DNA from: an uncultured Spirochaetaceae bacterium
Lineage (GTDB): Bacteria; Spirochaetota; Spirochaetia; DSM-27196; SLST01
NCBI GenBank assembly: GCA_964537725.1
Contig: CAZICD010000001.1
Span: 63,878-127,877 of the forward strand
Reading direction: 5' to 3'
Length of the DNA: 64,000 nucleotides
In this document: positions 1 to 63,617 of the stretch, piece after piece
How positions within the stretch are numbered: the stretch's first letter is position 1
Layout: the number at the start of each line of letters is the position of its first letter
Program-made: the position numbers and the translations under genes
The notes under the pieces: model-generated
Told to the model about the DNA's origin: nothing
The model's database searches: none
What the model saw: only the letters and a program-made list of their open reading frames with translations

Positions 1-97
1 AGCTCGAGGAGCCGCTCTGCACCGACGGCTGAACGGGGCGTGGCAGAGCACCGGGATACCCGCTACACTGAGGCTGAGACGGGGAATCGGGGAGAGC

Positions 98-1549: not shown

Positions 1550-1598
1550 GGTCGCGGGGCCGCTGGGCGTCAGGAGCTCGAACGCCTCAAGGGCCCGC

Positions 1599-3818: not shown

Positions 3819-3873
3819 TGTCTCCTCCTCAAAACGAGCCCCTCTGCGTGGGCAGCGCCGGTCTTCAGCGACG

Positions 3874-4875: not shown

Positions 4876-5361
4876 CTACTCGCCCTCCTCGATGATCTCC
4901 GCACCGATCGCGGTGAGGAAGTCCCCGAGCTCGGACGGGGGAAGCAGCAGCGTTTCCATCTCGTCGACGCCGCCGAAGTCGAGCTCCTGTTGCTCCTGGT
5001 ACTCCTGCTCGACCTGCTCGTTGAAGCCGCGACCGGCGAGCGCGATCTCGCGCGACGTGGTGCCGGTGTCCTCCGACGTGGCGCCGGTGAGGTTCATCTC
5101 GTCCGGCGGCAGGACCGCCGTCGAGTGCAGCCAGCCTTCGCCGCCGCTCGACTCGACCCGCACCCGGACCCAGTCGCCTCGAACGCCGAGCGCCGTGAGC
5201 GACGCTCCGTACGGCACGCGTTCTTCTATCGTGCTGAGAAATCCGGGGGCCGATCTCAGCTCGCCTTCGCGCACCGAAACGGCGATGGGGTCGCCCGGCT
5301 CGATCGCGAACGCGGCGCCGGCGAGCAGAAACAGCAGGACTGCCGTTCCGATTCTCTTCAT
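4876..5361 (-). CDS. Secreted SH3b-domain protein with acidic C-terminal tail
   Basis: Only the last 161 aa of the 811-aa track ORF look real. They have a signal peptide (MKRIGTAVLLFLLAGAAFA) and a bacterial SH3-like core (GDWVRVRVESSGGEGWLHSTAV). ATG at 5361. Confidence 0.65.
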   Translation of the reverse strand: MKRIGTAVLLFLLAGAAFAIEPGDPIAVSVREGELRSAPGFLSTIEERVPYGASLTALGVRGDWVRVRVESSGGEGWLHSTAVLPPDEMNLTGATSEDTGTTSREIALAGRGFNEQVEQEYQEQQELDFGGVDEMETLLLPPSELGDFLTAIGAEIIEEGE

Positions 5362-5477
5362 GGTGCCCTCCGCATGTGCAGTATATGCACGCCGTGGCAG
5401 CGAGTCGAGCGCCAGGGACGCAGTTGACCGTGCCGTCGATCGGTCGCCGCGAACTTGGCCCGGCGGGGAGCTTCGGC

Positions 5478-5483
5478 TACACT
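5478..5483 (+). promoter_or_regulatory. -10-like hexamer TACACT, 7 nt upstream of the MFS ATG (leaderless-type geometry)
   Basis: The sequence reads TACACT cgtcgga ATG(5491). The same spacing occurs at radA. Confidence 0.35.
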
Positions 5484-5490
5484 CGTCGGA

Positions 5491-6747
5491 ATGCAGGGCG
5501 GTATCGCTATTCACATCAGACGGCTCGTGCTCCCGGTCTACCTGCCCATGGTCCTCCTGTCGGTGGGGATGACCGCCCCTGTTGCCGCGTTTCCGCAGTA
5601 CCTCGCGTCGCTCGGCGCGTCGGTCGCGGTGGTGGGCGTTGTGATCTCCATGCGCGGCGTGGGCAACATGGTCAGCGACCTGCCCGGCGGGCTGATCCTC
5701 GGGCGCGTGCGGCTTCGGATCGTGGTCCAGGTCGCGCTCCTGCTCGCGAGCGCCGCCTCGGCGGCGATGGCGCTCATCCCTCACGTCGCCGTGATCGGCG
5801 CGCTGGTCGTCGTGATGGGAACCGCGAGCTCGGTCATGGTCACCGCGATGATGACCTACGTGCGCATCTCCGTACCGGCCGACCTGCGCGGCCGCGCGCT
5901 CTCGCTCACCGGCGGGTCGGTCCGCATCGGCGCGCTGGTCGGGCCGATCGCCGGCGGCCTGCTCGCCGACAGCTTCGGCGTACCGGCGGCGATCGGGCTT
6001 CGAGCCGCGGCGTTCTTCGCGGCGTTCGTCGTCTTCACGATGAGTCCCGACCGCGGAATCGGTGCGCCGGGACGGGCGCGCACGCGGTCCAGGGAGCGCG
6101 AGGCGGGAGGCGCGACGGCGGAACGGCCGGGCCTCGCAGCGCAGTTCCGTGCGATCGGTGCCGGACTCCGCGGGCGTGGCTGGGCGCTCGCGACGGTGGG
6201 GTTCGCGATCCTGATGCTCCAGCTCCTGCGCGCCTCGCGCAACATCGTGCTGCCGCTGTGGGGCGACGAGCTGGAGCTCTCCGCGACGTTGATCGGTTCG
6301 GTCATGAGCGCGGGAGCGGCGCTCGAGCTCGCGCTGTTCATCCCGGCTGGTATCATCATGGACCGTGCAGGACGCAAGGTCGCCGCGGGGCTCTGCATCG
6401 GCATCTTCTCGCTGGGAGTCTTCGCGCTCTCGCTCGCCGGCTCGGTACCGCTCTTCGTCGTCGCGAGCCTGCTCATCGGCCTGGGCAACGGCTTCGGCTC
6501 GGGCATCAACATGACGATCGGGACCGATCTCGCACCGTCGGGGGCGGTGAGCGAGTTCCTGGGCCTCTGGCGGCTCTTCGGCGACGTAGGCGCGGCGGCG
6601 GGCCCCGCGGTCGTGGGCAGCATCGCGAGCGCCGGCGGGTTGCCCGTCGCGATCGTCGCGACGGCGCTCTTCGGGGTGAGCGGTCTCGTCGCGCTGCTCT
6701 TCGCCCCGGAGACGCTCAAGCTCGCGAAGAGCGCCGACGACGGATAG
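5491..6747 (+). CDS. MFS transporter
   Basis: About 12 predicted hydrophobic helices and a central basic loop. Start set at the ATG 7 nt after the TACACT hexamer; the track ORF begins at TTG 5455. Confidence 0.8.
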   Translation: MQGGIAIHIRRLVLPVYLPMVLLSVGMTAPVAAFPQYLASLGASVAVVGVVISMRGVGNMVSDLPGGLILGRVRLRIVVQVALLLASAASAAMALIPHVAVIGALVVVMGTASSVMVTAMMTYVRISVPADLRGRALSLTGGSVRIGALVGPIAGGLLADSFGVPAAIGLRAAAFFAAFVVFTMSPDRGIGAPGRARTRSREREAGGATAERPGLAAQFRAIGAGLRGRGWALATVGFAILMLQLLRASRNIVLPLWGDELELSATLIGSVMSAGAALELALFIPAGIIMDRAGRKVAAGLCIGIFSLGVFALSLAGSVPLFVVASLLIGLGNGFGSGINMTIGTDLAPSGAVSEFLGLWRLFGDVGAAAGPAVVGSIASAGGLPVAIVATALFGVSGLVALLFAPETLKLAKSADDG

Positions 6748-6805
6748 CTGCGCATTGCCGAGTCGGGTCCGACCGTGTATTCTTGCACGCGCAAAGGAGT
6801 CCACC

Positions 6806-7984
6806 GTGTTCACGATTCGAACCATGAACAAAATCGCGCAGCGGGGCATCGCGCTGCTTCCATCCGACCGCTTCACCGTGGGCGACGACGTGCAGGATCC
6901 CGACGCGATCCTCGTGCGCAGCGCGAAGCTCCACGACGAGGAGTTCGCACCGAACATGAAGGCGATCGCGCGCGCGGGAGCCGGGGTCAACAACATCCCC
7001 ATCGACCGGTGCAGCGAACAGGGCATCGTCGTGTTCAACACGCCCGGCGCGAACGCGAACAGCGTCAAGGAGCTCGTCATCGCGGGCCTGTTGCTCTCTG
7101 CGCGCGGAATCCACGAGGGCCTGAGCTGGGTGAGCGAGAACGCGTCGGAATCAGACCTCGCGTCGCTCGTCGAGAAGGAGAAGAAGCGCTTCGCCGGGAC
7201 CGAGATCATGGGCAAGACGCTGGGTGTCGTTGGCCTAGGCGCGATCGGCGTGATGGTCTCGAACGCGGCTACCGCGCTGGGGATGCGGGTCATCGGCTTC
7301 GACCCGTTCATCTCGGTCGACTCGGCGTGGGGACTCTCGCGCGCGGTCGAACGCGCGCGCTCGCTCGAGCAACTGCTCGCGCAGGCGGATTACGTGACGA
7401 TCCACGTGCCGTTGAACGACAACACCAGGGGTATGATCGGAGCGAAGGAGATCGCCGCGATGAAGGAAGGCGCGCGGCTGCTCAACTTCGCGCGCGGCGG
7501 GCTCGTCGACGAAACCGAGCTCGCGACGGCGCTCGAGAGCGGCAAGGTCGCCCGGTACGTGACCGACTTCCCCGGCGAGACGATCGCCGGCGTGCCAGGC
7601 GTTCTTGGTGTTCCGCACCTCGGAGCATCAACGGAAGAAGCGGAGGAGAACTGCGCGGTCATGGCCTCCCGGCAGCTGCGCGACTACCTCGAGCGAGGCA
7701 CGATCACGAACTCGGTCAACTTCCCGGAATGCCAGCTCGACGCGACCGACAATCAGCGGGTCCTCGTCGCGAATCGAAACATTCCCAACATGGTCGGCCA
7801 GATCACGACGATCCTGGCGAACCACTCGATCAATATTCTCGATCTGCTGAACCGCCACCGGGGCGATCTCGCGTACAACATCATCGACATTGACGGGAAC
7901 CTCTCGCAGGAAGCGGTCGACCAGCTTCAGGCGATCGAAGGGGTCATTTTCGTACGCACGATCCAGCCGGTGCTCGGTTCGTAG
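6806..7984 (+). CDS. serA: D-3-phosphoglycerate dehydrogenase with C-terminal ACT domain
   Basis: 2-hydroxyacid dehydrogenase NAD fold (GVVGLGAIG) with a C-terminal ACT-like region (NIPNMVGQITTILANHSINI). AAGGAG lies 6 nt before GTG 6806; an alternative ATG is at 6824. Confidence 0.85.
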   Translation: MFTIRTMNKIAQRGIALLPSDRFTVGDDVQDPDAILVRSAKLHDEEFAPNMKAIARAGAGVNNIPIDRCSEQGIVVFNTPGANANSVKELVIAGLLLSARGIHEGLSWVSENASESDLASLVEKEKKRFAGTEIMGKTLGVVGLGAIGVMVSNAATALGMRVIGFDPFISVDSAWGLSRAVERARSLEQLLAQADYVTIHVPLNDNTRGMIGAKEIAAMKEGARLLNFARGGLVDETELATALESGKVARYVTDFPGETIAGVPGVLGVPHLGASTEEAEENCAVMASRQLRDYLERGTITNSVNFPECQLDATDNQRVLVANRNIPNMVGQITTILANHSINILDLLNRHRGDLAYNIIDIDGNLSQEAVDQLQAIEGVIFVRTIQPVLGS

Positions 7985-7999
7985 GTTCCAGGAGTCTGC

Positions 8000-9010
8000 A
8001 TGAGAACCTCAGTTATCTTCGCGATCATGGCGGTCGCGCTCGCGAGCGCCGCTTGCAGCACCCCCGACCGTGATCTCCCGAACGGCCTGTACGCGGAGAT
8101 CCAGACGGCGAAGGGGGACATCGTCATCGAGCTCTTCGACGAACGCGCACCGGCGACGGTGATGAACTTCGTCGGCCTCGCCGAAGGCGCGATCGACAAC
8201 ACGCACGCGCCCGGAGAACCGTACTTCGACGGGCTGACCTTCCACCGCGTCGAGCCGGGCTTCGTCATCCAGGGCGGCGACCCGAAGGGCGACGGCACCG
8301 GCGACCCGGGCTACCGGTTCCCCACCGAGACGCACCCCGAGCTCGTGCACGACGGGCCCGGCATCGTCGCGATGGCGAACTCCGGACCGGACACCAACGG
8401 CAGCCAGTTCTACATCACGATGGCACCGACGCCTCAACTCGACGGCGGCTACAACGTCTTCGGCGAGGTCGTCGAGGGCATGGACGTCGTCGGCTCGATC
8501 GAGGCCGGCGACCGGATGCGTCGCGTCTCCATCCTCCGGGTCGGAGACGAGGCGCAGGACTACGCACCGTCGCAGGAGTCGTTCGACGCGCTCGTCGCCG
8601 ATATCCGCGCGGAACGCGAACGCCAGCGCGAGGAGGCTCGACAGGCGGCGCTCGACGCGCTGCGCGACGAGTACCCGGGACTCGCCGAGTACGAGGACAC
8701 GGGTCTGCTCCTCGCCGAGATCCGTGCGGGGAGCGGCGCTCCTCCGCAGCAGGGCGACGAGGTCGCGGTGCACATCGTCTGGTCGCTTCCCGACGGCAGG
8801 CAGCTCGACAGCACGCGCGATCGCGGCGAGCCCGAGCGCTTCGTGTACATGCAGAACCGGCTCATCCGTGGGTTGGAGATCGCGATCGGTACGATGAGCG
8901 TGGGTGAGCGGACCGTCGCGGTCGTCCCGCCGGAGCTCTGGGGCGGCAACCGTCCGCCGATGATTCCGGAGGACAGCCACGTCGTCTTCGACATCGAGCG
9001 GCTGGAATAG
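8000..9010 (+). CDS. Lipoprotein fusing cyclophilin-type and FKBP-type peptidyl-prolyl isomerase domains
   Basis: Lipobox (LASAACS). Cyclophilin motifs (FHRV, GGDPKGDGTG, MANSGPDTNGSQFYIT), then an FKBP-like C-terminus (GDEVAVHIVWSLPDGRQLDS...LIRGLEIAIGTMSVGER). Confidence 0.8.
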   Translation: MRTSVIFAIMAVALASAACSTPDRDLPNGLYAEIQTAKGDIVIELFDERAPATVMNFVGLAEGAIDNTHAPGEPYFDGLTFHRVEPGFVIQGGDPKGDGTGDPGYRFPTETHPELVHDGPGIVAMANSGPDTNGSQFYITMAPTPQLDGGYNVFGEVVEGMDVVGSIEAGDRMRRVSILRVGDEAQDYAPSQESFDALVADIRAERERQREEARQAALDALRDEYPGLAEYEDTGLLLAEIRAGSGAPPQQGDEVAVHIVWSLPDGRQLDSTRDRGEPERFVYMQNRLIRGLEIAIGTMSVGERTVAVVPPELWGGNRPPMIPEDSHVVFDIERLE

Positions 9011-9031
9011 CGCGGGCCCGCCGGGCGAGTC

Positions 9032-11212
9032 CTACTCGAGCTCGTCGTAGCCGGTTCGCAGGTCTTCGAGGTACTGGCTGAGCTCGCGCGATTTGCCCTT
9101 GAGCATCGCCACGGACGCCGCTTCCTCGTCGCTGGACATGCTCTTCATCCGGGCCACGTCGATCTCGAGCTGCTTGAGCTGGTTGAGGCTCGAGGCGAGC
9201 CGCAGGCGCAGGATCTCCTGCTCGTTCTTCAGCTCGCCGTACGAGCTCTGCTGCTTCTGGATCTGCATGATCGACCTGTCGTACTCGGCGACGACCTTCT
9301 CGCTCTGCGCCTCCTGACGGCGCTTCTGGAGCGCCATCAGGTCCCGCTCGAGCTCGGTGACCGGAATCCCCTGCATGATCTCGTCGAGCTCCCGATTCTT
9401 CTGGTCGAGCAGCCTGATCTGCTCCACGTAGTTGTCGAGCACCGGCTCGAAGTCCTCGCCCAGCGGTGACCCGGAAGGCATCGCCTCGATCGACGCGATG
9501 AGGCGCTGGCGGATCTGCTCGGCCTCGTCGCCCGGTCCGCCGGCGGTCGTGCTCCGCTCGCCGGAGCGGCTGCGGTCGACGCTTCCCCGACCACCGAGGA
9601 TCCCGCCGATGCGCGCGCCCAGATCGCGCAGCCGCTTCAGCAGTCGCCGTTCGCGCGACTTGTACGCCGGCAGGTGCGAAAACAACCCGATCGCCATGAA
9701 TCCCACCGGAATAAACGACCACATGAAGCCCGGCGAGGTGATCAGGTTGAGCATGACGAGGAAGGCCCCGGTCGCGACGTTGGACACGAGGTGCCCGTGC
9801 CACGAGCTCCGGTTCTTCACGAGCTTGCGGTAGAGACGCAGCTGCTCGCGCGTGAGTCCTTCCGACCGGTCGAGCTCGCGGCTCTCGCGCACGCGCTCGC
9901 GAACGCCCGCGTAGTGGCTCGCGATCCCGATTCCCCAGGCAAAGAGCGGGATCAGGAACCACGGAAACCCGGTGACGCCGGTGAGGAGCCAGATCACGAA
10001 CAGACCGCCGTTGACCCCGGCGTAGCTGACGAAGTGGCCACGGAAGCCCGTCTTCTCCTTCTCGGCGACGTTGGCCGCGTGGTCCTTGTAGTCCTCCACG
10101 AGCGGGTCGTATCCGGCCGACGGAGCGGGCTCCTGCAGCGCACGGTCCCAGCCGCTCTCGCGTCGACGATGCTCCTTGTCGTCGCCGCGCCACTCGTGCT
10201 TGTCCCATTTGTCGGACCAGTCGTCAGAATCCGCGTGCCGGCGGTGCCGGTCGCGATCGGTCGCTTCGTGGTCGCGATGCCCGACCCGGTTGCCGTCGTC
10301 GTCGAAGAACGTCCGCCCGCCGGGCGTCGAGACTTCGACGCCGCGATTCACCGGACCGTAGTCGGTGTGTCCGCCGTCCCGCCTCACGCGGGTGAGGAAC
10401 CCCTTCTCGGCGAGCGACTCGAGCGCCCGGTCGACGCCGGCGCTGCGCCTGGGGATTCGTCGACGGATCTCGTCGATCGAGACTCGGCGGCCCGCCTTCT
10501 TGATCTCCTGCAGGACCAGCGCCTTGAGCTCGTTGAAGTCCTCGTACTGACCGCCGCGCAGGTTCTCCGAGAGCACGCTCCCCGGCGTTCGCTGCCCGCC
10601 GCGCGCACCGTCGGCCTGCTCCGGCTCGGCGCGCTCGAAGAGCGCATCGCGGCTCTCCTCCAGCTCGTCGCCGGGTGCGTCCACCTCGGCGGCGTCCGAC
10701 ACGGCGATCTCGTACGCGTCGAGCTCCCGGGAGACGTTGCGGAGCTTCACGGTGCCAAGATGCGACATGGACAGGTCGACCTTGTTCGCGACGAGATGGT
10801 AGACGTCCTGGGAGATGCAGATCCTGCCCGGACGGGCGATGCTCTGCAGGCGCGTCACGACGGTCACGCCGTCTCCCACCGCGTCGTCCTCGAGGAAGTA
10901 GATATCGCCCAGGTGCACGCCGATGCGCAGGCGCAGCGGCAGCTTCGGGTCGGCCTCGTTGTGCACGCCGACCGCCTCCTGGACCTCCGCCGCGCACTTC
11001 ACCGCGTTGACGGTGTTCGGGAACTCGCAGAGGAAGGCGTCACCGACGGTCTTGATCACCCTGCCGCCGTGCGCGTCCACGGTGCTGCGCACCAGCTTGT
11101 TATGCGTGGCGAGCAGCTCGAGCGTCCCCGCCTCGTCGCGTTCCATCATTCGCGAGAAACCAACGATATCTGTGAACATGATCGCCGCGAGGCGATACTC
11201 CTGCTGCGCCAT
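9032..11212 (-). CDS. Class III nucleotidyl cyclase - winged-helix - 2x 2TM domain - coiled-coil protein
   Basis: ATG at 11212 (MAQQEYRLAAIMFTDIVGFSRMME...TVGDAFLCEF). A wHTH-like segment is followed by a His/Asp/Arg-rich linker. Two 2TM-type units follow (HFVSYAGVNGG...PWFLIP..WGIGIASH; HLVSNVATG...), then a long C-terminal heptad region. Confidence 0.8.
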   Translation of the reverse strand: MAQQEYRLAAIMFTDIVGFSRMMERDEAGTLELLATHNKLVRSTVDAHGGRVIKTVGDAFLCEFPNTVNAVKCAAEVQEAVGVHNEADPKLPLRLRIGVHLGDIYFLEDDAVGDGVTVVTRLQSIARPGRICISQDVYHLVANKVDLSMSHLGTVKLRNVSRELDAYEIAVSDAAEVDAPGDELEESRDALFERAEPEQADGARGGQRTPGSVLSENLRGGQYEDFNELKALVLQEIKKAGRRVSIDEIRRRIPRRSAGVDRALESLAEKGFLTRVRRDGGHTDYGPVNRGVEVSTPGGRTFFDDDGNRVGHRDHEATDRDRHRRHADSDDWSDKWDKHEWRGDDKEHRRRESGWDRALQEPAPSAGYDPLVEDYKDHAANVAEKEKTGFRGHFVSYAGVNGGLFVIWLLTGVTGFPWFLIPLFAWGIGIASHYAGVRERVRESRELDRSEGLTREQLRLYRKLVKNRSSWHGHLVSNVATGAFLVMLNLITSPGFMWSFIPVGFMAIGLFSHLPAYKSRERRLLKRLRDLGARIGGILGGRGSVDRSRSGERSTTAGGPGDEAEQIRQRLIASIEAMPSGSPLGEDFEPVLDNYVEQIRLLDQKNRELDEIMQGIPVTELERDLMALQKRRQEAQSEKVVAEYDRSIMQIQKQQSSYGELKNEQEILRLRLASSLNQLKQLEIDVARMKSMSSDEEAASVAMLKGKSRELSQYLEDLRTGYDELE

Positions 11213-11390
11213 CTCGTCACCACAATAGGGTGCCCGGGTGGCGTCGTCAAGGCAGAGCGTTTGGCCGGTAGTCACGCCTCTTGATACCCGCCGGGTGGAG
11301 TATATGTCACTTTTTTCACAACCAAGCGGCGTTGCGGACGTATAGTTAGGAAGAGCCCGGCCGACGCCGGCCCTCGAGGAGGATTCGCCA

Positions 11391-13211
11391 ATGATCGACC
11401 GACCGAACGCACGCATGGCTCCCCGGGTCAGAACCGCATTCCACGCCGGTTTCGCGCTCGCGCTCCTCGCGACGCTCGGCGCGTGCGCGACCGCCCCACA
11501 GCAACCGGACCTGAGTACCCGCGGCGACTACGGGCCGCTCATCGACTACGCGAGCGAAGCGATCCCGCGCGCGATGGAGGACCACGACGTGACCGGCCTC
11601 TCGGTCGCGCTCGTCGACGGGGACGAGGTGGTCTGGATGCGAGGCTTCGGAGAGGCGGATGCGGAAGCCGGCGTACCGGCCGGCGTACCGGCCGACGAGC
11701 AAACCGTCTATCGAATCGGTTCGATCACCAAGCTCTTCACCGCGACGGCGATGATGCAACTGGCCGAGCAGGGGCTGGTCGACATCGACGCGCCTGTCAC
11801 CGACTACATCCCCGAGTTCCGCGTGCGGTCGCGGTTCGCCGACGCCGGTCCCATCCGGGTGCGACACCTGATGACGCATCACTCGGGACTCCCCGGCGAT
11901 AAGGTCAAGGCGATGTTCGGCGATCCACCGGATCACTACCGCGAGTTCGTCCCCTACCTCGCGACGCAACACGTCTCGACCCCGCCGGACTTCGTCTTCG
12001 CGTACTCGAACCTCGCGGTCGGGCTCGCCGGCGTCGTCATCGAGCGGGCGAGCGGGCTCTCCTACGAGGAGTACGTCACCCGGAACATCCTCGACCCGCT
12101 GGGCATGCGCGGCACATCGGTCTCGCTCGACGAGCGGACGGCGTCAGCCTACGCGAAGGCGTACTCCTCCGGCAACGAGCAGACGGAGCTCGACCTGGGT
12201 AATGCGCCGGCCGGCGGAATCTACTCGAACGTCGAGGACATGACGCGGTTCGTCCGCTTCGCGACCTGCGGTGGCGAGGTCGCCGGTACGCGCGTGCTTA
12301 AGGCGCAGACGCTCGCGCAGATGATGAGCCCGCAAAACGAGACGGTAACGCGTGACCTGGGTCGGCCGATGGGCCTGGGCTGGGCGATCGCACGCGCAGG
12401 ACTCGATCACGTGGAGCCGGTAGCGTGGCACAACGGCTCCACGATGTACCACCAGAGCACGATGGTGGTCCTGCCGGAGCACGGACTGGGCGTCGTGCTT
12501 CTGTCGAACTCGGACACCGGCTCCCGTGTCATCGAGCCGATGGCCGATGCCATCCTCACGATGGCGCTCGAAGTTCGCGAGGGCATCGCACCGCCGGAAG
12601 ACGAGCAGACGTGCGCCGGAGCGACACTCTCGCCGGAGCTCGCCGCCACGATCGCCGGCAGATACGCGACGCCGCTCGGCGTGATCGACGTGCAGCAGCG
12701 GGGCAGACGGCTCGTAACGCGGCTGCCAGGAACGCCGAGACTGCACCTCGTTCCGTGCGACGACGGGTGGCTCGCGCCGCAGTTCCGGCTGCTCGGCCTG
12801 CTTCCCCTCCCGGTCGCCGACCTCGCGGGCGTGCGCTTCGCCGGCGTCGAGATCGACGGGACGCGCTACCTCGCGGTGAAGAGCGGACGCTACGGCCAGC
12901 TGATCGGCGAGGAGCTCGAGGTCGTCCCCATCCCGGCCACGTGGCGCGCGGCCGAGGGCACCTACCGCGTCGTCAACCCCGACCCCGGATGGGGCTTCCG
13001 GCGCGTCGATGCGGAAATCGTGGACGGGGTGGCGATCGCGCGGGTGAGCCTGTTCAACGGCGATGAGCTCCAGCTCGTTCTCGAGCCGCTCAACGAACGC
13101 GAGGCGGTCGTCCAGGGCATTGGCCGGAACACCGGCGACACTCTGACGCTGCGCTTCGAGGGAGACCGGCCGGTGATCGAGGCGACCGGCTACGTGTTCG
13201 AGCGAGAGTAG
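11391..13211 (+). CDS. Serine hydrolase (beta-lactamase/PBP4-like) lipoprotein with extra C-terminal domain
   Basis: S-x-x-K motif (GSITKLF), YSN motif and a lipobox (LATLGACA). GAGGAGG Shine-Dalgarno. Confidence 0.8.
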   Translation: MIDRPNARMAPRVRTAFHAGFALALLATLGACATAPQQPDLSTRGDYGPLIDYASEAIPRAMEDHDVTGLSVALVDGDEVVWMRGFGEADAEAGVPAGVPADEQTVYRIGSITKLFTATAMMQLAEQGLVDIDAPVTDYIPEFRVRSRFADAGPIRVRHLMTHHSGLPGDKVKAMFGDPPDHYREFVPYLATQHVSTPPDFVFAYSNLAVGLAGVVIERASGLSYEEYVTRNILDPLGMRGTSVSLDERTASAYAKAYSSGNEQTELDLGNAPAGGIYSNVEDMTRFVRFATCGGEVAGTRVLKAQTLAQMMSPQNETVTRDLGRPMGLGWAIARAGLDHVEPVAWHNGSTMYHQSTMVVLPEHGLGVVLLSNSDTGSRVIEPMADAILTMALEVREGIAPPEDEQTCAGATLSPELAATIAGRYATPLGVIDVQQRGRRLVTRLPGTPRLHLVPCDDGWLAPQFRLLGLLPLPVADLAGVRFAGVEIDGTRYLAVKSGRYGQLIGEELEVVPIPATWRAAEGTYRVVNPDPGWGFRRVDAEIVDGVAIARVSLFNGDELQLVLEPLNEREAVVQGIGRNTGDTLTLRFEGDRPVIEATGYVFERE

Positions 13212-14326
13212 CCGTCGGGAGCTGCGCTCTCCTCGCCGTCGGCGATCGTCGGGATCGCGTCCAGGCGAAACCGGAGCCGATAGACGGTTCCGGGACCAGG
13301 CGATCGCTCGAGCGCGCCGCCGATCTGGTCGGCCAGCAGCTCGACGAGTCCAAGGCCCAACCGCTGACCTTCGGCGTCTCCCAGGGCACCCGCGGCGCCC
13401 ACGCCGTCGTCGGCGATGCGGAGGTCGCACACCCCGTCGCCGGAGCTCAGGGTCACCTCGATCGATCCCTCCCGTCCGTTCGGAAAGGCGTGCTTCACCG
13501 CGTTGGTAACGAGCTCGTTGACGATGAGCCCGATACAGACCGCGGTGTCCACCGGCACGGCGCACGAGTCGAAGGAGGTGCGAGGTTCCTGTACCCGCGA
13601 CGGCCAGCCGATGGACGCGTTCAGCGTGTCGAGCAGACGCGTCAGGTAGAGCCCCAGATCGACCTCCCCGTACGCTCCGCCGCCGGAGAGCTGCTCGTAG
13701 ACGAGACCGATCGAGTCGACCCGCGTTCGTATGTCGCGCAGCGAGGCCTCCGCAGCCTCATCGCTGACCTCGCTCTGGGCGAGCGAGACGAGGCTCGAGA
13801 TGAGCGAGAGCGAGTTCTTCACGCGGTGCTGGAGCTCGCGATAGAGGATGTCCCGGCTGTCGAGCGCCCCGCGCAACTCCTCCTCGGCTCGACGCCGCGC
13901 CCCGATCTCCTCGCGCAGATAGTCGATCGTCTCCTGGAGCAGCGTCGCGTTCTCGATCCAGAGCACCGTCCCACCGGAGACGTCGCAGCGGCGGCAGGTG
14001 ACCCGGTAGTGCGGCAGCGAGAAGCTCCCGGAACGCATACGCAGCAACCCGCGATTCACGGTGCCGTGGAACACGACCGGTGTGCCCTGGTCGGCAAGCG
14101 TGTCGAGTCTCATGCGGTACCGCGGTCGCTCGAACTCCGGAAACACGCGAACGATGGGCAGGTCGGCGACGTCGTTCGCCTGAAGCCCCGTCCACGTGAC
14201 CATCTGCGCGTTCCAGGTCCGAATCCGGCCCGACTCGTCGAGCACGACGATTCCGTACGGCGCCTGGTCGAGCAGCCCGTCGGGCCGGATCTTCTGCGGA
14301 TGTGGCGGATGGCGTGGCTCAGACAT
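13190..14326 (-). CDS. PAS-domain sensor histidine kinase (HisKA_2/HWE-type)
   Basis: The H-box YRELQHRVKNSLSLISSL is typical of HisKA_2. It has an N-terminal PAS and a C-terminal ATPase (NELVTNAVKHAF...DDGVG). The start overlaps the upstream gene by 8 nt. Confidence 0.8.
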   Translation of the reverse strand: MSEPRHPPHPQKIRPDGLLDQAPYGIVVLDESGRIRTWNAQMVTWTGLQANDVADLPIVRVFPEFERPRYRMRLDTLADQGTPVVFHGTVNRGLLRMRSGSFSLPHYRVTCRRCDVSGGTVLWIENATLLQETIDYLREEIGARRRAEEELRGALDSRDILYRELQHRVKNSLSLISSLVSLAQSEVSDEAAEASLRDIRTRVDSIGLVYEQLSGGGAYGEVDLGLYLTRLLDTLNASIGWPSRVQEPRTSFDSCAVPVDTAVCIGLIVNELVTNAVKHAFPNGREGSIEVTLSSGDGVCDLRIADDGVGAAGALGDAEGQRLGLGLVELLADQIGGALERSPGPGTVYRLRFRLDAIPTIADGEESAAPDGYSRSNT

Positions 14327-14888
14327 GATCGGTCCAGGAGGGGTCGTTGAGGATCAGCCCGATGCCGAGAGGCGCCGGCTCCTCGCGGTTGACGGTAGCC
14401 TCGCCCGAGAGCGAGACCGTCGCGGTCGCCGACTCGAGCATCCCGATCAGCTCCGGCCGGGACACGAGCCCGGGTAACTCGAACAGGTAGGTCTCGTCGA
14501 GCGCCCGTCCCGCTTCGGCCACGACGGAGTTGAGAACGACGTTGCCCAGCTCCACGACGGTCGTGGGGTAGAACGCGAGCGCGTCGTCGGTGCTCACCGT
14601 CTCATCGCCGAGGAGGGCGGTGACGAGCGGCTGCACCGCTGCTCGTGAGATGACGAGCAGCGCGGCCCCGCTGGACCCTCCCGCGAAGGTCATCGCTACG
14701 GCCCACGAACGGTCGTCGGCGGCGAACGCACCGATGCCCTCGTCGTCGATCACCGGCTCGCCGAAGGTGACCGGCACCTCGAACATCTCCGCGAGGATCG
14801 CCTGCGACTGCCGCCAGCCCTCCCGGAGCGCGGTGACGAGCGCAGCCCGCGAACGTCCCCGCCTTCTCGTCGTGTCCGCCGCGTTCAT
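14319..14888 (-). CDS. CheC/CheX-family (CheY-P phosphatase-like) protein
   Basis: 189 aa. One copy of the family motif [D/S]x3-E-x2-N-x22-P is present as T-x3-ELGN-x22-P. ATGA overlap with the receiver gene. Confidence 0.55.
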   Translation of the reverse strand: MNAADTTRRRGRSRAALVTALREGWRQSQAILAEMFEVPVTFGEPVIDDEGIGAFAADDRSWAVAMTFAGGSSGAALLVISRAAVQPLVTALLGDETVSTDDALAFYPTTVVELGNVVLNSVVAEAGRALDETYLFELPGLVSRPELIGMLESATATVSLSGEATVNREEPAPLGIGLILNDPSWTDHV

Positions 14889-57548: not shown

Positions 57549-58118
57549 GTGCCGGGTAGTATCCCTGAACGAGAAGAACGAGCACTCATTGAGCGTGCGC
57601 AGCGTGGCGACACGGCCGCATTCGGCGTGCTCGTGCAGCGGTACCTGGAACGCGTGTACCGCGTCGCGCACGCGATCGTGCGCAACGCCGACGAGGCGGC
57701 GGATATCGCGCAGGACACGTTCGTGAGGGCGTTCCGCCGGATGGACCGGTTCGACCCGCAGCGGCCGCTGTTTCCCTGGCTCTACCAGATCGCCCGCAAC
57801 CTGGCGCTCAACCGAATCGAGCGGGTGCGCAGACGCGAGGCGACGCTGCCGGAGCAGGACGCGCTGCTGGCCGTCGGCCCGGGACCGGAGGAGGCTCTGA
57901 TAGCCGCGAGCGAGTCGGAGCGCGTGCGCGCGGCGGTCGCGTCGCTGCCCGAGGCGCATCGCGAGGTGATCGAGCTCAACCACTTCCAGGAGTGCTCGTA
58001 CCGGGAGATGGCCGATATCCTGGGAATCCCCATCGGCACGGTGATGTCGCGCCTCTATCACGCGCGAAGGCGTCTGAAGAGGCTGCTCGACGAGGAGACC
58101 AGCGATGTCCGCGTATAA
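57549..58118 (+). CDS. ECF-type RNA polymerase sigma factor
   Basis: Region 2 (LIERAQRGDTAAFGVLVQRY...FVRAF, PWLYQIARN) and region 4 (EVIELNHFQECSYREMADILGIPIGTVMSRL). Confidence 0.85.
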   Translation: MPGSIPEREERALIERAQRGDTAAFGVLVQRYLERVYRVAHAIVRNADEAADIAQDTFVRAFRRMDRFDPQRPLFPWLYQIARNLALNRIERVRRREATLPEQDALLAVGPGPEEALIAASESERVRAAVASLPEAHREVIELNHFQECSYREMADILGIPIGTVMSRLYHARRRLKRLLDEETSDVRV

Positions 58119-58566
58119 TCCAGACGAGAATATTCCCGAGGACGATATTCGCATCCGCATCCAGGCGCTCGTCGACAACGAGCTGCCCGAGGGCGAGATC
58201 GAGGCCGTGCTCGCAGAGATCGAGGGATCCTACGAGTATCGCACCGAGTACGCCGAGCTGCTGAAGCTCCGCCGCAAGCTTGGACCCGGCCCCGCGCAGC
58301 GCGTATCCGACGAGTGGGTCGAGCGCGCGGAGGCTCGCGTCACCCGTCGCATCGGCCGGGGGCTGGGCATGGTGCTCTTCCTCGGCTCGTACCTCGTCCT
58401 GCTCGGCTACGCGATCTACACGATGCTCCGCGAGCCCGACGTGCCCCTGATCGTCGCGGTGCTCATCCTGGGCGTCGTCGCCGGCTTCGTCATCTTGCTC
58501 GCGACCGCGATCGCGGATAGAGTACGGGAGCGAAAGACCGACAGGTATCGGGGGATCATACGATGA
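58105..58566 (+). CDS. Putative membrane anti-sigma factor (no zinc-finger Cys/His)
   Basis: It overlaps the sigma gene by 14 nt. The N-terminal helical segment (IQALVDNELPEGE) sits where ZAS motifs usually lie. Two C-terminal TM helices. Confidence 0.5.
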   Translation: MSAYNPDENIPEDDIRIRIQALVDNELPEGEIEAVLAEIEGSYEYRTEYAELLKLRRKLGPGPAQRVSDEWVERAEARVTRRIGRGLGMVLFLGSYLVLLGYAIYTMLREPDVPLIVAVLILGVVAGFVILLATAIADRVRERKTDRYRGIIR

Positions 58567-58883
58567 TTGTCGCTACGACCGACTCATTGCCGGGACGACG
58601 CGTAACCGCGGTGCTGGGCCTGGTTCGCGGAAACACGATCCGTGCCCGCCACCTGGGAAAGGACATCTCGGCAGCCTTCAAGAACCTCGCCGGCGGCGAA
58701 ATCTCCGACTACACGAAGATGATGGCCGAAAGCCGCGAGCAGGCGATCGACCGCATGATCGAGGACGCCGAGTCGGTCGGAGCCGACGCGATCGTCGGTG
58801 TACGGTTCACGACGAGCTCGGTGATGCAGGGCGCCGCCGAGATCCTCGTCTACGGCACAGCGATCCGTTGCGAATCGGAATAG
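58563..58883 (+). CDS. YbjQ/UPF0145-family protein
   Basis: 106 aa. It shows VRGNTIRARHLGKDI...GGEI..Y......R..A...M...A...GADAIVGVRF. ATGA overlap with the upstream gene. Confidence 0.85.
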   Translation: MIVATTDSLPGRRVTAVLGLVRGNTIRARHLGKDISAAFKNLAGGEISDYTKMMAESREQAIDRMIEDAESVGADAIVGVRFTTSSVMQGAAEILVYGTAIRCESE

Positions 58884-59166: not shown

Positions 59167-59862
59167 CTATCGGCATTCCAGACGGTATCCGCGGCCTCGC
59201 GAGCACGAAATCGTGGGTGGCGCGGGCCAGTCCGACGCGGCCTGCGCGAGCCTGCTCCGCAGGCGGGAGAGATGCATGTCGACAGCCCTGCTCGCGGGAC
59301 CGTGGTCCGGGACGACCGCCTGAAGCGCCTCGCGCGGGACCGGATCGTCGCCCCCGCGAGCGAGCATCTCGAGCATGGCGAGCTGGACAGGAGAGATCCC
59401 GACGCGGTGCGCCGGGTCGTCGCCGTCCACCGAGACCCAGTAGCGACCGAAGTGGAGCTCGCCTGCCGCGCACCTCACCATGCGGCGCCGGAGCAGGCGC
59501 CGAACGCGATAGCGCAGTTCCTGCGCGGTCCACGGTTCGACGAGCACGTCGTCGCAGGCTGCGTCGTCGATCGAGTCGAGCGCCGAGGGGGATCCGTAAA
59601 CGAGGACGGGCGGGGCGGCGGGAAGGCCTGCGTCGGAGGCAACCAGGCTCGCGGGCCCGATGATCAGTACGGGGATGTCGCCGTCGGAGAGCGAGGCGAG
59701 CGCGCGTGCGTCGACGTTGTGCACCGCCCGACGCGTCCCCGATTCGAGCGCGAGCCGGACGCGCTCGCGCGTGTAGTCGTCGGCGCCGACGAGCCAGACG
59801 TCGGAGACCGGTCGGTCAGGACTCTTCGTTGAGCTTGCGCTTGAGCGCTTCGAGCTCTTCAT
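59167..59862 (-). CDS. OmpR/PhoB-type winged-helix regulator with degenerate (non-phosphorylatable) receiver
   Basis: C-terminal wHTH (ISPVQLAMLEML...AVDMHLSRLRSRL...GRGYRLE). The receiver positions D, T and K read I, G and E. The start is uncertain; ATG 59862 overlaps the pspA 3' end by 47 nt. Confidence 0.65.
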   Translation of the reverse strand: MKSSKRSSASSTKSPDRPVSDVWLVGADDYTRERVRLALESGTRRAVHNVDARALASLSDGDIPVLIIGPASLVASDAGLPAAPPVLVYGSPSALDSIDDAACDDVLVEPWTAQELRYRVRRLLRRRMVRCAAGELHFGRYWVSVDGDDPAHRVGISPVQLAMLEMLARGGDDPVPREALQAVVPDHGPASRAVDMHLSRLRSRLAQAASDWPAPPTISCSRGRGYRLECR

Positions 59863-60631
59863 CGACCTCTTCGGCGGAACCCGAGTCAGAGGAACCCGGA
59901 GACGCGCCACCGGCCTGGGAAGAACCGGCATTCTCACCGGACGAGCCGCCGGTCTTGTCCTCGATCGCCATCTTCTGCTTCAGGTCCTCGAGGAGCTGTT
60001 CGGTGTTTCCGCCGGCCTCGAGCTGGGCGAACTGCTGCTCGAGGCTCTCGCTCTCGGTCGTGCCCTCGATCTCGAGCATCGCGTCGTTCTCGGCCTCGAT
60101 CTGGTCCATGCGCTTGCTCATCTGGTCGAAGGCCTCGAAGGCGGATGTGTCGGCCATACCGCCGATCGTCTCGTTGATCCGCTTCTGCGCCTCGGCGCGT
60201 CGGGCACGGGCTACGAGCAGGTTCTTCTTGCGCTGTGCCTCCTCGATCTTCTGCTGGAGCCCTCGCAGGGCGCTCTTCAGCTTCTCGACCGATTCGTGCT
60301 GCGCCTCCCACTGCTCCTTGTACTGAGTGGCGGTCTTGTCGAACTCCTGCTTGCGGATCAGCGCTTCCTTGGCGAGGTCGTCCTTCCCGGCGCGGACCGC
60401 GAGCATGGCCTTGCGCTCCCACTCCTGGCCGGCGGCGAGGTTCTCCTTCACCTGGCGCTCGAGCTTCTTCTCGTCCGCGATCGCGGACGCGACGCTCTTC
60501 TTCGACTCGATGAGCTGCTGGTTCATATCGACGATCAGCTGGTTGAGCATCTTCTCGGGATTCTCAGCCTTGCTGATCATGTCGTTGAGGTTCGATTTCA
60601 CGACTCGTCTGAAGCGATCAAAGATTCCCAC
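59816..60631 (-). CDS. pspA: PspA/IM30-family protein with Gly/Ser-rich linker and extra C-terminal helix
   Basis: GTG start after GAGGAGG. The N-terminus GIFDRFRRVVKSNLNDMISKAENPEKMLNQL is canonical PspA. Long coiled coils are followed by the tail GGSSGENAGSSQAGGASPGSSDSGSAEEVDEELEALKRKLNEES. Confidence 0.9.
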   Translation of the reverse strand: MGIFDRFRRVVKSNLNDMISKAENPEKMLNQLIVDMNQQLIESKKSVASAIADEKKLERQVKENLAAGQEWERKAMLAVRAGKDDLAKEALIRKQEFDKTATQYKEQWEAQHESVEKLKSALRGLQQKIEEAQRKKNLLVARARRAEAQKRINETIGGMADTSAFEAFDQMSKRMDQIEAENDAMLEIEGTTESESLEQQFAQLEAGGNTEQLLEDLKQKMAIEDKTGGSSGENAGSSQAGGASPGSSDSGSAEEVDEELEALKRKLNEES

Positions 60632-60642
60632 AGCGGGCCTCC

Positions 60643-61035
60643 TCAGGTCGATTGCCGGTACTTCGCGAGCCGGCTGTAGTGCTGCGCGAGCGCGAGCCCG
60701 GTCGAATCGAGCGACGCCTGGAACTCCTCGAGGTCCATGGACGGGAACTCCAGACTGTCTATCAAGATGACACTGTCCTCTTCGATCGCATAGGCCCCGT
60801 GGACCATCTCGGCGTTCAGCCGCAGGAGCTCTTCGAAGAACTCCTCGCGCTTCTCGCCGGGAACATCCATGACCTTCGCCCGAAGCGTCACGAGCTCGTC
60901 CTGGACGTAGACGACGACCGAGCTCAGCCCGTTCTCCTCGTCGGTGAGCAACCACATGTTCTCACCGATTTCCTCATAGATCAGTTCTAGGTTGATGAAG
61001 AAGCTTTCCAGCTTCTCCTGTGCTGACGCTGCCAT
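60643..61035 (-). CDS. Small acidic protein, YbjN/CesT-like (type III chaperone-like fold) by composition and pattern
   Basis: 130 aa. The alternating beta/alpha pattern (WLLTDEENGLSSVVVYVQDELVTLRAKV...LLRLNAEMVHGAYAIEEDSVILIDSL) fits this fold. AGGAG lies 7 nt before ATG 61035. This is a fold guess only. Confidence 0.55.
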   Translation of the reverse strand: MAASAQEKLESFFINLELIYEEIGENMWLLTDEENGLSSVVVYVQDELVTLRAKVMDVPGEKREEFFEELLRLNAEMVHGAYAIEEDSVILIDSLEFPSMDLEEFQASLDSTGLALAQHYSRLAKYRQST

Positions 61036-61063
61036 CACGCGACTCCTGTGAAATGTAAACCGT

Positions 61064-61111: not shown

Positions 61112-61663
61112 TCAGCCGAGGAACACCTGCCCGGCCGTGTCGATCGCAAGGATCGTCTTGCACTCCGAGCAACGGAACCGGCCGGCCTTGGTCGCCTTGA
61201 GCTTCTTCCCGCAAATGGGACACTTGAAGATCTTGGGGAAGACGTCCGACCGCTGGGTCGTCCCGCCCTTGGAGAAGAACTCGACCGCCTCGTCCAGGCT
61301 GTCCTTGATGTTGAAGAACTGCGAGAAGCCGAGGAGCTGAAAGACCTCGTAGACCTTCGGCTGGATCTCGAGCAGGACGAGGTCGCCGCCACGCGGGCGT
61401 ACCGACTTGAGAAACGCGGTGAACGAACCGATGCCGGTGCTCGACACGTAGTTCAGGCCGGCGCAGTGGAAGATCAGCTTCGTGAAACCCGCTTCGATCG
61501 CACGATTCACGCGCTTCTGAAAGAAGTTGCTGTTGTAAGTATCGATGTAGCCGGTGAGAAACAGAACGAGACCGCCTTCGACGTTGTCAATCTGCTGGAG
61601 CTTGATCTTCAGGCTGTCATCTTTCTCTTCGTCGAACCCTGCAACAATGTCGTTATTAGCCAT
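61112..61663 (-). CDS. STAS-domain protein (anti-sigma antagonist fold) fused to a C-terminal CxxC...CxxC zinc ribbon
   Basis: 183 aa. STAS pattern (LVLFLTGYIDTYNS...LIFHCAGLNYVSSTGIGSFTAFL...VYEVFQLLGF), then FKCPICGKKLKATKAGRFRCSECKTIL. GAAGGAGAA Shine-Dalgarno. The gene is visibly AT-richer than its neighbours. Confidence 0.8.
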   Translation of the reverse strand: MANNDIVAGFDEEKDDSLKIKLQQIDNVEGGLVLFLTGYIDTYNSNFFQKRVNRAIEAGFTKLIFHCAGLNYVSSTGIGSFTAFLKSVRPRGGDLVLLEIQPKVYEVFQLLGFSQFFNIKDSLDEAVEFFSKGGTTQRSDVFPKIFKCPICGKKLKATKAGRFRCSECKTILAIDTAGQVFLG

Positions 61664-61719
61664 GGTTCTCCTTCAGATCCCGCGGACGCGGCCAGTTTTT
61701 TACATTTTAACCCGATCAC

Positions 61720-61748
61720 ATAGTATGAGAGCAACGGAGCTTTGTCAA
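61720..61748 (-). promoter_or_regulatory. Near-consensus sigma-70 promoter TTGACA-17-TACTAT for the STAS/PspA operon
   Basis: On the minus strand the -35 TTGACA is at 61748-61743, the spacer is exactly 17 nt, and the -10 TACTAT is at 61725-61720. The leader to ATG 61663 is about 50 nt. Confidence 0.55.
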
Positions 61749-61938
61749 ACTTGGCCGTTGCCCCTTTCACCCAGAATGTACCACGTCCGGCGGGGCTTCG
61801 CCGGTCGAATTCGGCGCCGCCGGAGTCGGCCCGCACGCGTCGTACGAGCGTCCCGGCCGGGCGCGCTCGAGTAGACCAATTCGCGTCCCCGTTGGTATAC
61901 TCGCGATGGTTCGGGTGAACGAGCCGGGAGGAGAGCCC

Positions 61939-62424
61939 ATGAAAAAGCTCGCGTTCGTCGTTCTCGTGGCTGCGCTGCTCACTCTCGTCGCGACTCCCGG
62001 GATCTCGCAGGTAACCCCGCAGGAGTTCGAGTCGGTCATCAACTTCGAGGATTCGATCGAATCGCTCGCGACGCTCGTCAACACCGGCGCGTACGATCGG
62101 ATAGACGTGGACCGCTACTACGTCCTCGACGGCGCGGTCGCATCCACGCAGATCTTCAATCCGGACCCCGAATCGTTCCAGGCGGTCATCGAGCTCGTCT
62201 CGAGCGAATGGGTCGGCCTCGAGCGCATCGAGGCGTACCATATCTACGTGCTCGTCGAAGGCCCGGAGTACGCCGCGCGTATCCCGGAGAGAATGCCGCG
62301 CGACCCGGGACCCGAAGTCATCCAGACCAATCAGGAGCTGCTCGTCATCGGTCCGTTCATCGGGACCGCGATGCTCGACGCCTCCACCGAAGTGGCGGTC
62401 ATCCAGGCGGTCGCGCTGCGCTGA
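61939..62424 (+). CDS. Small secreted hypothetical protein
   Basis: 161 aa from the ATG after GGGAGGAGAG. Signal peptide (MKKLAFVVLVAALLTLVATPGISQ). No family recognised. Confidence 0.55.
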   Translation: MKKLAFVVLVAALLTLVATPGISQVTPQEFESVINFEDSIESLATLVNTGAYDRIDVDRYYVLDGAVASTQIFNPDPESFQAVIELVSSEWVGLERIEAYHIYVLVEGPEYAARIPERMPRDPGPEVIQTNQELLVIGPFIGTAMLDASTEVAVIQAVALR

Positions 62425-62432
62425 GCGCAGCC

Positions 62433-63569
<1,137 letters not shown>

Positions 63570-63588
63570 AAAAAATCTCCAGACGAAT

Positions 63589-63617
63589 ATTGTATACCCG
63601 ACCCGTGCAGTCGTCAA
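63589..63617 (-). promoter_or_regulatory. Sigma-70-like promoter TTGACG-17-TACAAT for the sigma-54 activator gene
   Basis: On the minus strand the -35 is at 63617-63612, the spacer is 17 nt, and the -10 is at 63594-63589, 19 nt before GTG 63569. Confidence 0.5.

Follow-up and report, generated by a model that had tools for sequence, protein, structure and literature searches.

A widespread spirochaete STAS protein with a fused four-cysteine ribbon, encoded at the promoter-proximal end of a gene cluster that contains PspA

Introduction

What is the role of a STAS domain of the anti-sigma-factor-antagonist type when it carries a small cysteine ribbon of its own, and when its gene lies apart from any gene for a cognate kinase or phosphatase? 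This question is raised by a gene located at positions 61112..61663, on the (-) strand, of a stretch of 64,000 nt from an uncultured Spirochaetaceae bacterium (assembly GCA_964537725.1, contig CAZICD010000001.1, positions 63,878-127,877 of the forward strand); we refer to the whole of this stretch as “the window”, and to the product of the gene as “the STAS-ribbon protein”. For partner switching, STAS antagonists are the textbook module; to our knowledge, nearly all of those that have been studied are single-domain proteins that are encoded beside a kinase and a phosphatase.

We have compared the STAS-ribbon protein, its homologues and their gene neighbourhoods, and we have found that it belongs to a widespread, well-defined subfamily, uncharacterised in the literature found. 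As a tentative reading, which falls a little short of being probable, we propose that the protein is a serine-phosphorylatable partner-switching adaptor, in which a structural zinc ribbon would provide a second docking surface onto a module of a CesT-like chaperone, PspA and an OmpR-like regulator. An earlier, preliminary description of the locus, made from the nucleotide sequence, is referred to where our results bear on it.

Results

The STAS domain and its serine

The coding sequence, delimited from the list of open reading frames (ORFs) and from the matches to Pfam and TIGR00377, begins with an ATG and encodes 183 aa, the stop codon being included in the coordinates given above. The STAS domain occupies residues 18-131 (61271..61612, (-)), as delimited by the Pfam and Foldseek matches: residues 20-126 align to positions 2-106 of the 106-position profile of the Pfam STAS family, PF01740 (E 3.3e-23; 81.9 bits, where 22.6 are required), and the protein passes the NCBIfam model TIGR00377, “anti-sigma factor antagonist”, with 58.8 bits where 53.45 are required. 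With 43.5 bits it stays below the 114.75 that TIGR02886, the equivalog model for SpoIIAA, demands, and is therefore no SpoIIAA orthologue. The preliminary description had assigned residues 1-130 to the SpoIIAA/RsbV pattern, with the serine loop YVSSTGIG; the domain and the loop are supported by Pfam and TIGR00377, but residues 1-17 are not part of the STAS domain.

The loop YVSSTGIG corresponds to residues 72-79. In the profile alignment to PDB sequences, S75 (codon 61439..61441, (-)) pairs with the serine that TM1442 has in its “DSxGLG” motif (“yvSstgig” against “YMDSAGLG”, E 1e-18); the equivalent serine is the one that is phosphorylated in antagonists of the SpoIIAA/RsbV/TM1442 type. Both S74 and S75 belong to the positions that are at least 90% conserved in an alignment of 108 family members, together with G38, G93, L111, G112, F142, P143, P149 and G161. 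The pattern SS[TAS]G is dominant among 150 representatives (SSTG in 73, SSAG in 11 and SSSG in 9). The members of the 108-sequence alignment are 37-87% identical to the query and were selected for the cysteine motif, so that the evidence on the cysteines rests instead on the count of 133 representatives that is presented below.

The AlphaFold2 model of the whole protein, calculated with the same 108-sequence alignment, has a predicted local distance difference test score (pLDDT) of 94.8 and a predicted template modelling score (pTM) of 0.78; it consists of a canonical STAS fold at residues 18-131, followed by a short linker of low confidence and by the ribbon, and it places S75 at the start of helix alpha-2 (residues 75-91). 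The best matches of the model in the PDB, as found by Foldseek, are SpoIIAA in complex with SpoIIAB (1tid_B/1th8), RsbV with RsbW (6m36) and TM1442 (1vc1), with target-normalised TM-scores of 0.88-0.90 and root-mean-square deviations of 1.4-1.8 Å over ~115 residues; none of these solved structures covers the ribbon.

Residues 1-17 (61613..61663, (-)) form an acidic extension that is specific to the family, with a net charge of -5 in the window protein and a mean of -3 over the 108 members. The extension is confidently placed in the model (pLDDT 95-97), and residues N3, N4, I6, V7, G9, F10 and D11 are invariant in the close homologues.

The C-terminal ribbon

The basic C-terminal ribbon is located at residues 142-183 (61115..61240, (-)), has a net charge of +7 and follows the form FP-x4-CPxC-x13-CxxC...LG. 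Its cysteines, in the motif C148-P-I-C151, x13, C165-S-E-C168, are encoded at 61220-61222, 61211-61213, 61169-61171 and 61160-61162 (-), as read from the sequence; the four-cysteine ribbon is thus present as had been described, with a spacer of 13 residues and not of 14. Strands are predicted at residues 144-147, 154-157, 161-164, 171-174 and 180-182, and in a model of the ribbon alone (pLDDT 88) strands flank each knuckle.

The cysteine pairs, on whose conservation in homologues the preliminary description had made its proposal depend, are kept: all four cysteines occur in 122 of 133 representatives (clustered at 50% identity, with the C-terminus aligned), which is far above chance, and the 11 representatives that lack the full set are long multi-STAS proteins and one case of a single substitution. 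The fusion of a STAS domain to a four-cysteine ribbon is thereby borne out by the Pfam and TIGR00377 matches, by the conservation of the cysteines and by the predicted strands.

The signature of the family is FP-x4-CPxC-x3-L-x-A-x-K-x-G-R-F-R-C-x2-C-K...G-x-V-x-LG. The mean charge of the ribbon across the members is +5, with a net charge of at least +3 in 86% of them, and R164 and K159 are conserved. When the 5.8-billion-protein set was searched with a profile of the ribbon, only fragments of the same family were recovered and no other architecture; in this search, the FP-x4-CPxC...GRFRCxxCK...LG signature was met only in fusion with the STAS domain of the present family. An electrostatic latch from the acidic N-terminus to the basic ribbon was considered as well and rejected, since the charges of the two segments do not co-vary.

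The comparison with known ribbons has returned weak resemblances. LysW, eS27/eL43 and the McsA zinc finger likewise have two CxxC knuckles on beta-hairpins, at E-values of 6e-4 to 0.05 and beyond, with no family threshold being reached. No ribbon family of Pfam exceeds its gathering threshold (the best, Zn_ribbon_DUF2089, has 22.4 bits against 27.6), and the profile search of PDB sequences with the ribbon gives weak matches only: PINCH LIM (2.5e-4), the McsA zinc finger (5.9e-4) and eL43 (0.035). The Foldseek search with the ribbon-only model ranks LysW first, at E 0.05, followed by ribosomal ribbons of the eS27 type and by RBR RING2 domains, none of them significant.

Since the CPxC...CxxC knuckles are modelled on beta-hairpins, as is typical of structural ribbons, the ribbon looks structural, and it would probably bind zinc. 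The preliminary description had named redox or zinc sensing among the possible outputs of the ribbon; in a variant of this view, the ribbon would be a sensing input, as in ZAS anti-sigma factors, that reports stress to the PspA operon. The four invariant cysteines would agree with such a sensor, and so would a fifth cysteine, C67, which is invariant in the close homologues and ~60% conserved across the family; the HxxxCxxC (ZAS) motif is, however, absent from all 183 residues, the domain is a STAS domain and not an anti-sigma domain, no genes of thiol or metal homeostasis occur in the neighbourhood, and the association with PspA, as we describe below, is facultative. We consider the sensor very improbable.

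The family, its hosts and its conservation

In the 5.8-billion-protein set, 2752 homologues were matched; the top 120 share 79-91% identity with the query and have lengths of 177-185 aa. A HMMER search of representatives at 50% identity has given 184 matches at E<=1e-30, mostly of ~180 aa and aligned end-to-end with the query, and a profile built from divergent members (40-55% identical) has mostly recovered the core spirochaete group again. Relatives occur in at least 522 species, according to a scan of one genome per species. The best 80 loci are all from spirochaete assemblies, except for one metagenome-assembled genome (MAG) that is labelled Desulfovibrionaceae; the closest to the window among the matches listed is a Spirochaetaceae MAG. 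The hosts include Salinispira pacifica, Alkalispirochaeta, Sediminispirochaeta and Oceanispirochaeta of the Spirochaetales, as well as Gracilinema caldarium (Treponematales, according to the NCBI taxonomy), Treponema sp. and Termitinemataceae.

The single exception (L065, CAXXHY010000065.1) has an 82%-identical copy, with neighbours (a sigma-54 regulator and a 172-residue protein) that are spirochaete-like; it is probably a mis-binned spirochaete contig.

The STAS-ribbon protein of the window is 82% identical to that of Salinispira and 79% identical to that of Gracilinema, compared with 71% and 73% for AroA, 62% and 61% for PspA, and 46% and 45% for the CesT-like protein of the same region; the identities of the aspartokinase and of the sigma-54 regulator are 54% and 37%. 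Across Spirochaetales and Treponematales, the identities of the protein lie between 79% and 91%. The STAS-ribbon gene is the most conserved of the compared genes in the region, and its slow evolution would fit a hub with several interaction surfaces.

Variant architectures have also been encountered (L092 2733..4613; P0122, P0125, P0132 and P0194): a STAS-ribbon gene followed by two more STAS genes, STAS-ribbon-STAS, two STAS domains followed by a ribbon, ankyrin repeats followed by STAS-ribbon, and ribbon-STAS-ribbon. A further group of long proteins (P0216, P0222, P0255, P0263, P0265 and P0267; 600-1500 aa) has three stretches that resemble STAS and C-terminal tails that are rich in Lys and look eukaryotic, and matches the STAS domain of the window protein at E ~1e-34 to 1e-38.

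A fusion that turned out to be common and already annotated in a known pathway would have spoken against the preliminary description: the fusion is indeed common, but its annotation is generic (“STAS domain-containing protein” or “anti-sigma factor antagonist”) and assigns it to no described pathway. We have found in the literature no study of any member, no combination of a STAS domain with a zinc ribbon (the top-ranked results on the two terms mention no zinc ribbon), and no paper that ties a spirochaete STAS protein to PspA. Borrelia BB0566 appears there simply as a STAS protein.

GC content

The GC content of the gene is 0.574, compared with a window mean of 0.672, from which a foreign origin or an unusual codon usage had been suspected. 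The low value is real, and it is the one observation in favour of horizontal acquisition; its distribution over the codon positions argues for another cause. The GC content at the third codon position (GC3) is 0.84, inside the range of the window (0.885 +/- 0.024 in 26 long ORFs), and the deficit lies at codon positions 1 and 2 (0.53 and 0.35). Over 83 orthologous loci, whose flanking GC content ranges from 0.34 to 0.67, the GC content of the first two positions remains at 0.39-0.45 (standard deviation 0.014, slope 0.13), while GC3 follows the genome (0.30-0.85, slope 1.6). The low GC content is thus the footprint of a frozen protein sequence, one that is rich in Phe, Lys, Ile and Asn, and not of foreign origin. 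The gene is also part of a core-genome block with AroA, aspartokinase, threonine synthase, CtpB and RsmE, and it is syntenic and vertically inherited across Spirochaetia. The foreign-origin reading is effectively refuted, and we leave it next to no probability.

Search for a linked kinase and phosphatase

With the Pfam scan of 43 further ORFs, added to the six that were scanned first, essentially all ORFs of the window have been covered. Neither a small kinase of the RsbW/SpoIIAB type, consisting of HATPase_c_2 only, nor a SpoIIE/PP2C phosphatase is present in the 64-kb window, as the preliminary description had stated, and neither an RsbW-like kinase nor a PP2C phosphatase occurs in nine Pfam-annotated homologue contexts. 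The sole GHKL protein of the window is a PAS-HisKA_2-HATPase_c sensor kinase (13190..14353), 47 kb off. The kinase and the phosphatase are unlinked in the window and in the nine contexts searched; genes of these types may exist elsewhere in the genome.

Promoter and 5' untranslated region

A near-consensus sigma-70 promoter, TTGACA-17 nt-TACTAT, is located upstream of the gene at 61720..61748 (-), with 10/12 matches in a consensus scan that has found three promoter-like sites in the region against 0.3 expected. In 82 of 85 loci, the orthologue is preceded by a -35 element resembling TTGAC[AT], a spacer of 16-18 nt and a TAnnnT element, the commonest form being TTTGACAAA with a 17-nt spacer; the retention of these elements across the loci indicates that the STAS-ribbon gene has its own strong, conserved promoter of the housekeeping type. 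The Shine-Dalgarno sequence AGGAG, read from the sequence, is located at 61668..61672 (-), 4 nt ahead of the ATG, and a purine-rich GAAGG or AGAGG is seen at the same place in most of 73 distinct 5' untranslated regions (UTRs), as judged by eye and uncounted.

Two other forms of control were considered and rejected. Control by sigma-54, through the REC-AAA+ activator that is encoded upstream, is not supported, because the STAS-ribbon gene has no -24/-12 element upstream and has the sigma-70 promoter there instead; loose -24/-12 matches number 14 window-wide, against 12.4 expected, with none in the right place. A conserved RNA element in the 5' UTR was likewise set aside: TGTAAAAA plus a hairpin is found in a subset of close relatives only, the UTRs are 36-114 nt long and the Rfam search is empty. 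In the window, (T)GTAAAAA followed by a GC-rich hairpin precedes the Shine-Dalgarno sequence at 61673..61719 (-), and the same arrangement is seen in the 5' UTRs of loci L001, L002, L006, L008, L011-L019, L052 and L064.

The gene cluster and its association with PspA

The STAS-ribbon gene stands first after the promoter in a cluster of same-strand genes, PspA among them. It is followed after 73 nt by the gene of a CesT/Tir-like (YbjN-like) chaperone (60643..61038, (-); Pfam CesT_Tir_1, E 1.7e-23), by a PspA/IM30 gene that starts with a GTG, 11 nt past the stop of the CesT-like gene (59816..60631, (-); Pfam PspA_IM30, E 3.2e-52), and by a gene of an OmpR-family winged-helix regulator (59167..59861, (-); Pfam Trans_reg_C, E 2.9e-8), whose probable ATG at 59861 overlaps the end of pspA. 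A scan has found no terminator on that strand between the STAS-ribbon and CesT-like genes; a terminator or attenuator in this gap was rejected on the same empty scan and on an intergenic fold z-score of 0.43.

The order STAS, CesT-like, PspA is shared by Salinispira, Gracilinema and a Treponema MAG in their Pfam-annotated contexts, and the same-strand, short-gap layout that also includes the OmpR-like gene recurs in Spirochaetales and Treponematales. Downstream sequence of sufficient length is available for 69 orthologous loci: 59 of them have the OmpR-like gene downstream, 51 have PspA, 33 have the CesT-like gene and 5 have none of the three. In loci that lack CesT and PspA, the STAS-ribbon gene is directly followed by the OmpR-like gene, and the CesT-PspA dyad has the look of an optional insertion between these two genes. 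PspA is absent downstream in 18 of the 69 close loci, and it adjoins none of the five divergent members whose contexts were fetched, these being solitary in unrelated contexts or followed by further STAS genes; the association with PspA is therefore not obligatory. The proposal that the STAS-ribbon protein is the sensory head of the PspA operon agrees with its promoter-proximal place in a cluster that contains PspA, and is overstated in view of these counts and of the identities of 79-82% for the STAS-ribbon protein against 61-62% for PspA.

The cluster also brings forward a first alternative to the phosphorylatable adaptor, namely a non-phosphorylated factor for the assembly or recruitment of PspA: the STAS domain would act as a scaffold only and, with the CesT-like chaperone, would control the polymerisation of PspA, which is ESCRT-III-like, while the basic ribbon would bind either anionic lipid of the membrane or PspA, at its acidic C-terminal tail. 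The terminator-free layout, its recurrence in Salinispira, Gracilinema and Treponema, the frequency of PspA downstream, the unlinked kinase and phosphatase, the average charge of +5 on the ribbon and the conserved acidic or amphipathic C-terminal motifs of the PspA orthologues all agree with such a factor. CesT/Tir-PspA dyads have been described by Ravi et al. (2024), who proposed a role in sub-membrane assembly (PMC11237479), and the two genes downstream of the STAS-ribbon gene match this dyad exactly, with CesT_Tir_1 followed by PspA_IM30; when the main text of their survey was searched for terms, “anti-sigma” came up zero times, and STAS does not occur in it. The loci and divergent contexts without PspA, and a protein that evolves more slowly than its supposed clients (82% identity against 62% for PspA and 46% for CesT), speak against this alternative, and a pure scaffold would leave the near-invariant SS[TAS]G unexplained. 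We regard it as possible, but on the unlikely side.

Neighbouring genes

The wider region is a conserved core-genome block, which includes a CtpB-like peptidase, RsmE, WecG, AroA, aspartokinase and threonine synthase. Upstream of the STAS-ribbon gene are located a sigma-54 activator (62433..63617, (-)), which has REC, AAA+ and lid domains and no DNA-binding helix-turn-helix (HTH), and a divergent gene, orf172 (61906..62424, (+)), whose 172-aa product has an N-terminus resembling a signal peptide and matches no Pfam family. Both are syntenic in 57/66 loci; since the whole region is a conserved block, we do not count this synteny as functional evidence, and for the sigma-54 regulator it may reflect inheritance and not function.

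Several features of these proteins deserve a mention in their own right. In 58 of 66 orthologues, the sigma-54 activator likewise ends without an HTH; in the window it has an Asn where the “LLDL” of NtrC1 has an Asp (among the orthologues, D is found 33 times, N and E 10 times each and G 7 times), and its GAFTGA loop reads GAFTDA. The orf172 protein, syntenic in ~60/66 loci, is 24-54% identical beyond its two nearest relatives. The OmpR-like regulator is just 25-38% identical between lineages, though it is the most constant downstream neighbour, and its N-terminal half is receiver-like without the phospho-accepting aspartate (D-h-h-h-h-P, then ...YGP...DYL.EPW..EL..R). The C-terminus of PspA (59816..60000 (-) in the window; orthologues L001-L091) has a conserved, amphipathic MLEDLKKRM-like motif, of which many orthologues have a second copy, EELEALKRKL, after a Ser/Gly-rich low-complexity linker; these motifs are reminiscent of the short interaction motifs at the C-termini of ESCRT-III proteins.

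Convergent with the operon, at 57549..58883 (+), there is a module of an extracytoplasmic function (ECF) sigma factor, an anti-sigma factor with two transmembrane segments (TM) and a YbjQ_1 protein, a trio that recurs in Salinispira and in more than 10 other loci. Genes for nucleotide second messengers crowd the left end of the window (2..11527), where a PAS-GAF-GGDEF protein, a CHASE2 adenylate/guanylate cyclase and another cyclase, this one with 2TM domains, are encoded.

Discussion

The question from which we set out can be answered, tentatively, in three steps. The protein would be made from its own strong sigma-70 promoter; the S75 face of its STAS domain would then bind a GHKL (RsbW-like) kinase or another partner that is encoded elsewhere, and phosphorylation may switch this binding; finally, the structural zinc ribbon would act as a second, positively charged docking surface that ties the switch to its target, which would most plausibly be part of the co-transcribed module of CesT-like protein, PspA and atypical OmpR, with a presumed function in envelope stress. 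With the protein in the anti-sigma-antagonist branch and the serine in place, a serine-switched partner-binding module is the most economical mechanism, and it is supported by the fact that the closest structures and sequences are those of phosphorylatable antagonists (SpoIIAA, RsbV and TM1442).

Several observations weigh against this adaptor. A Ser, and not the usual Asp, precedes S75; with no kinase or phosphatase linked to the gene, the phospho-switch is drawn from sequence analogy only; PspA is missing from part of the close loci and from the five divergent contexts that were checked. The charges of the N-terminal tail and of the ribbon are not anti-correlated among the family members (rho -0.13, p 0.19), and the ribbon has no significant relative, by structure or by sequence, that would hint at its ligand.

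The comparison with SpoIIAA, RsbV and TM1442 (PF01740, TIGR00377) places the window protein in the same fold, with the conserved serine at the start of helix alpha-2. Unlike these antagonists, it adds a 17-residue acidic tail and a 42-residue basic four-cysteine ribbon, which are absent from all solved antagonists of this type, it has no kinase or phosphatase gene nearby, it has Ser in place of Asp before the serine, and it is ~80% identical across orders, above the housekeeping enzymes that are encoded alongside.

A closer likeness in layout is offered by CapS, a protein of 184 aa in which a STAS domain (residues 1-111) is followed by a 70-aa C-terminal winged-helix DNA-binding domain; CapS is a repressor that is phosphorylated by CapK, and the phosphorylation of the equivalent STAS serine dissolves the dimer and controls the C-terminal winged helix (PMC13373217). 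The window protein is similar in length (183 aa) and also combines a STAS domain at the N-terminus, with its conserved serine, and a small C-terminal domain of the output kind; it differs in that its C-terminus is a ribbon and not a winged HTH, in its location in a core-genome PspA operon and not in a defence island, and in that no gene of an HTH-STAS-GHKL (CapK-like) kinase lies near it. In function, CapS is the closest precedent for a small output domain that is fused to a STAS domain and switched through a serine, and it shows that such a switch can exert direct control over the fused binding domain.

This precedent suggests a second alternative, a one-component phospho-switch, in which the STAS domain would control oligomerisation through S75 and the ligand of the ribbon would be DNA, RNA, RNA polymerase or the ribosome; the protein would then be a global regulator in spirochaetes. 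Apart from size and layout, it could draw on the strongly basic ribbon with its conserved R164 and K159, on the weak resemblance to the ribosomal ribbons eL43 and eS27, on the extreme conservation and the strong, conserved promoter, and on the tandem and multi-STAS variants, which suggest STAS-STAS association. It is opposed by the lack of a significant match to known DNA- or RNA-binding ribbons, by the lack of an adjacent CapK-like kinase, and by 5' UTRs that vary in length and sequence and in which no conserved palindrome or RNA element has been identified, with Rfam empty; we judge it decidedly unlikely.

Other STAS proteins depart from the classical scheme without any fused ribbon, which sets them apart from the window protein. 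HsbA, SypA and BtrV have their kinase and phosphatase partners encoded close by. HsbA/PA3347, SypA and BtrV are STAS-only antagonists of non-canonical partner switching, with targets outside the classical pairs of sigma and anti-sigma factors (PMC8256260); accordingly, the target of the window protein could also be other than an anti-sigma kinase.

A bolder reading, which we consider unlikely, is that of a spirochaete-wide hub regulator of a new kind: a serine-switched STAS domain that needs no anti-sigma kinase, whose ribbon would act directly on a core machine, for example RNA polymerase, the ribosome, nucleic acid or the polymer of PspA/ESCRT-III that repairs membranes. If true, it would explain why the protein is conserved above housekeeping enzymes and has its own consensus promoter. 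The level of conservation suggests several binding surfaces that are engaged simultaneously.

The phylum of the spirochaetes includes important pathogens, as well as termite and sediment symbionts. The STAS-ribbon proteins form within it a distinct subfamily, set apart by the fused ribbon, by the unlinked gene arrangement and by near-invariance over at least two spirochaete orders. Their gene illustrates cleanly how a local GC trough, of the kind that can be mistaken for horizontal transfer, arises in a high-GC genome from a protein sequence that is frozen. If the ribbon is the output of the protein, it would be a new type of output for STAS signalling, and it could give a handle on the control of PspA, the bacterial ESCRT-III, outside proteobacteria.

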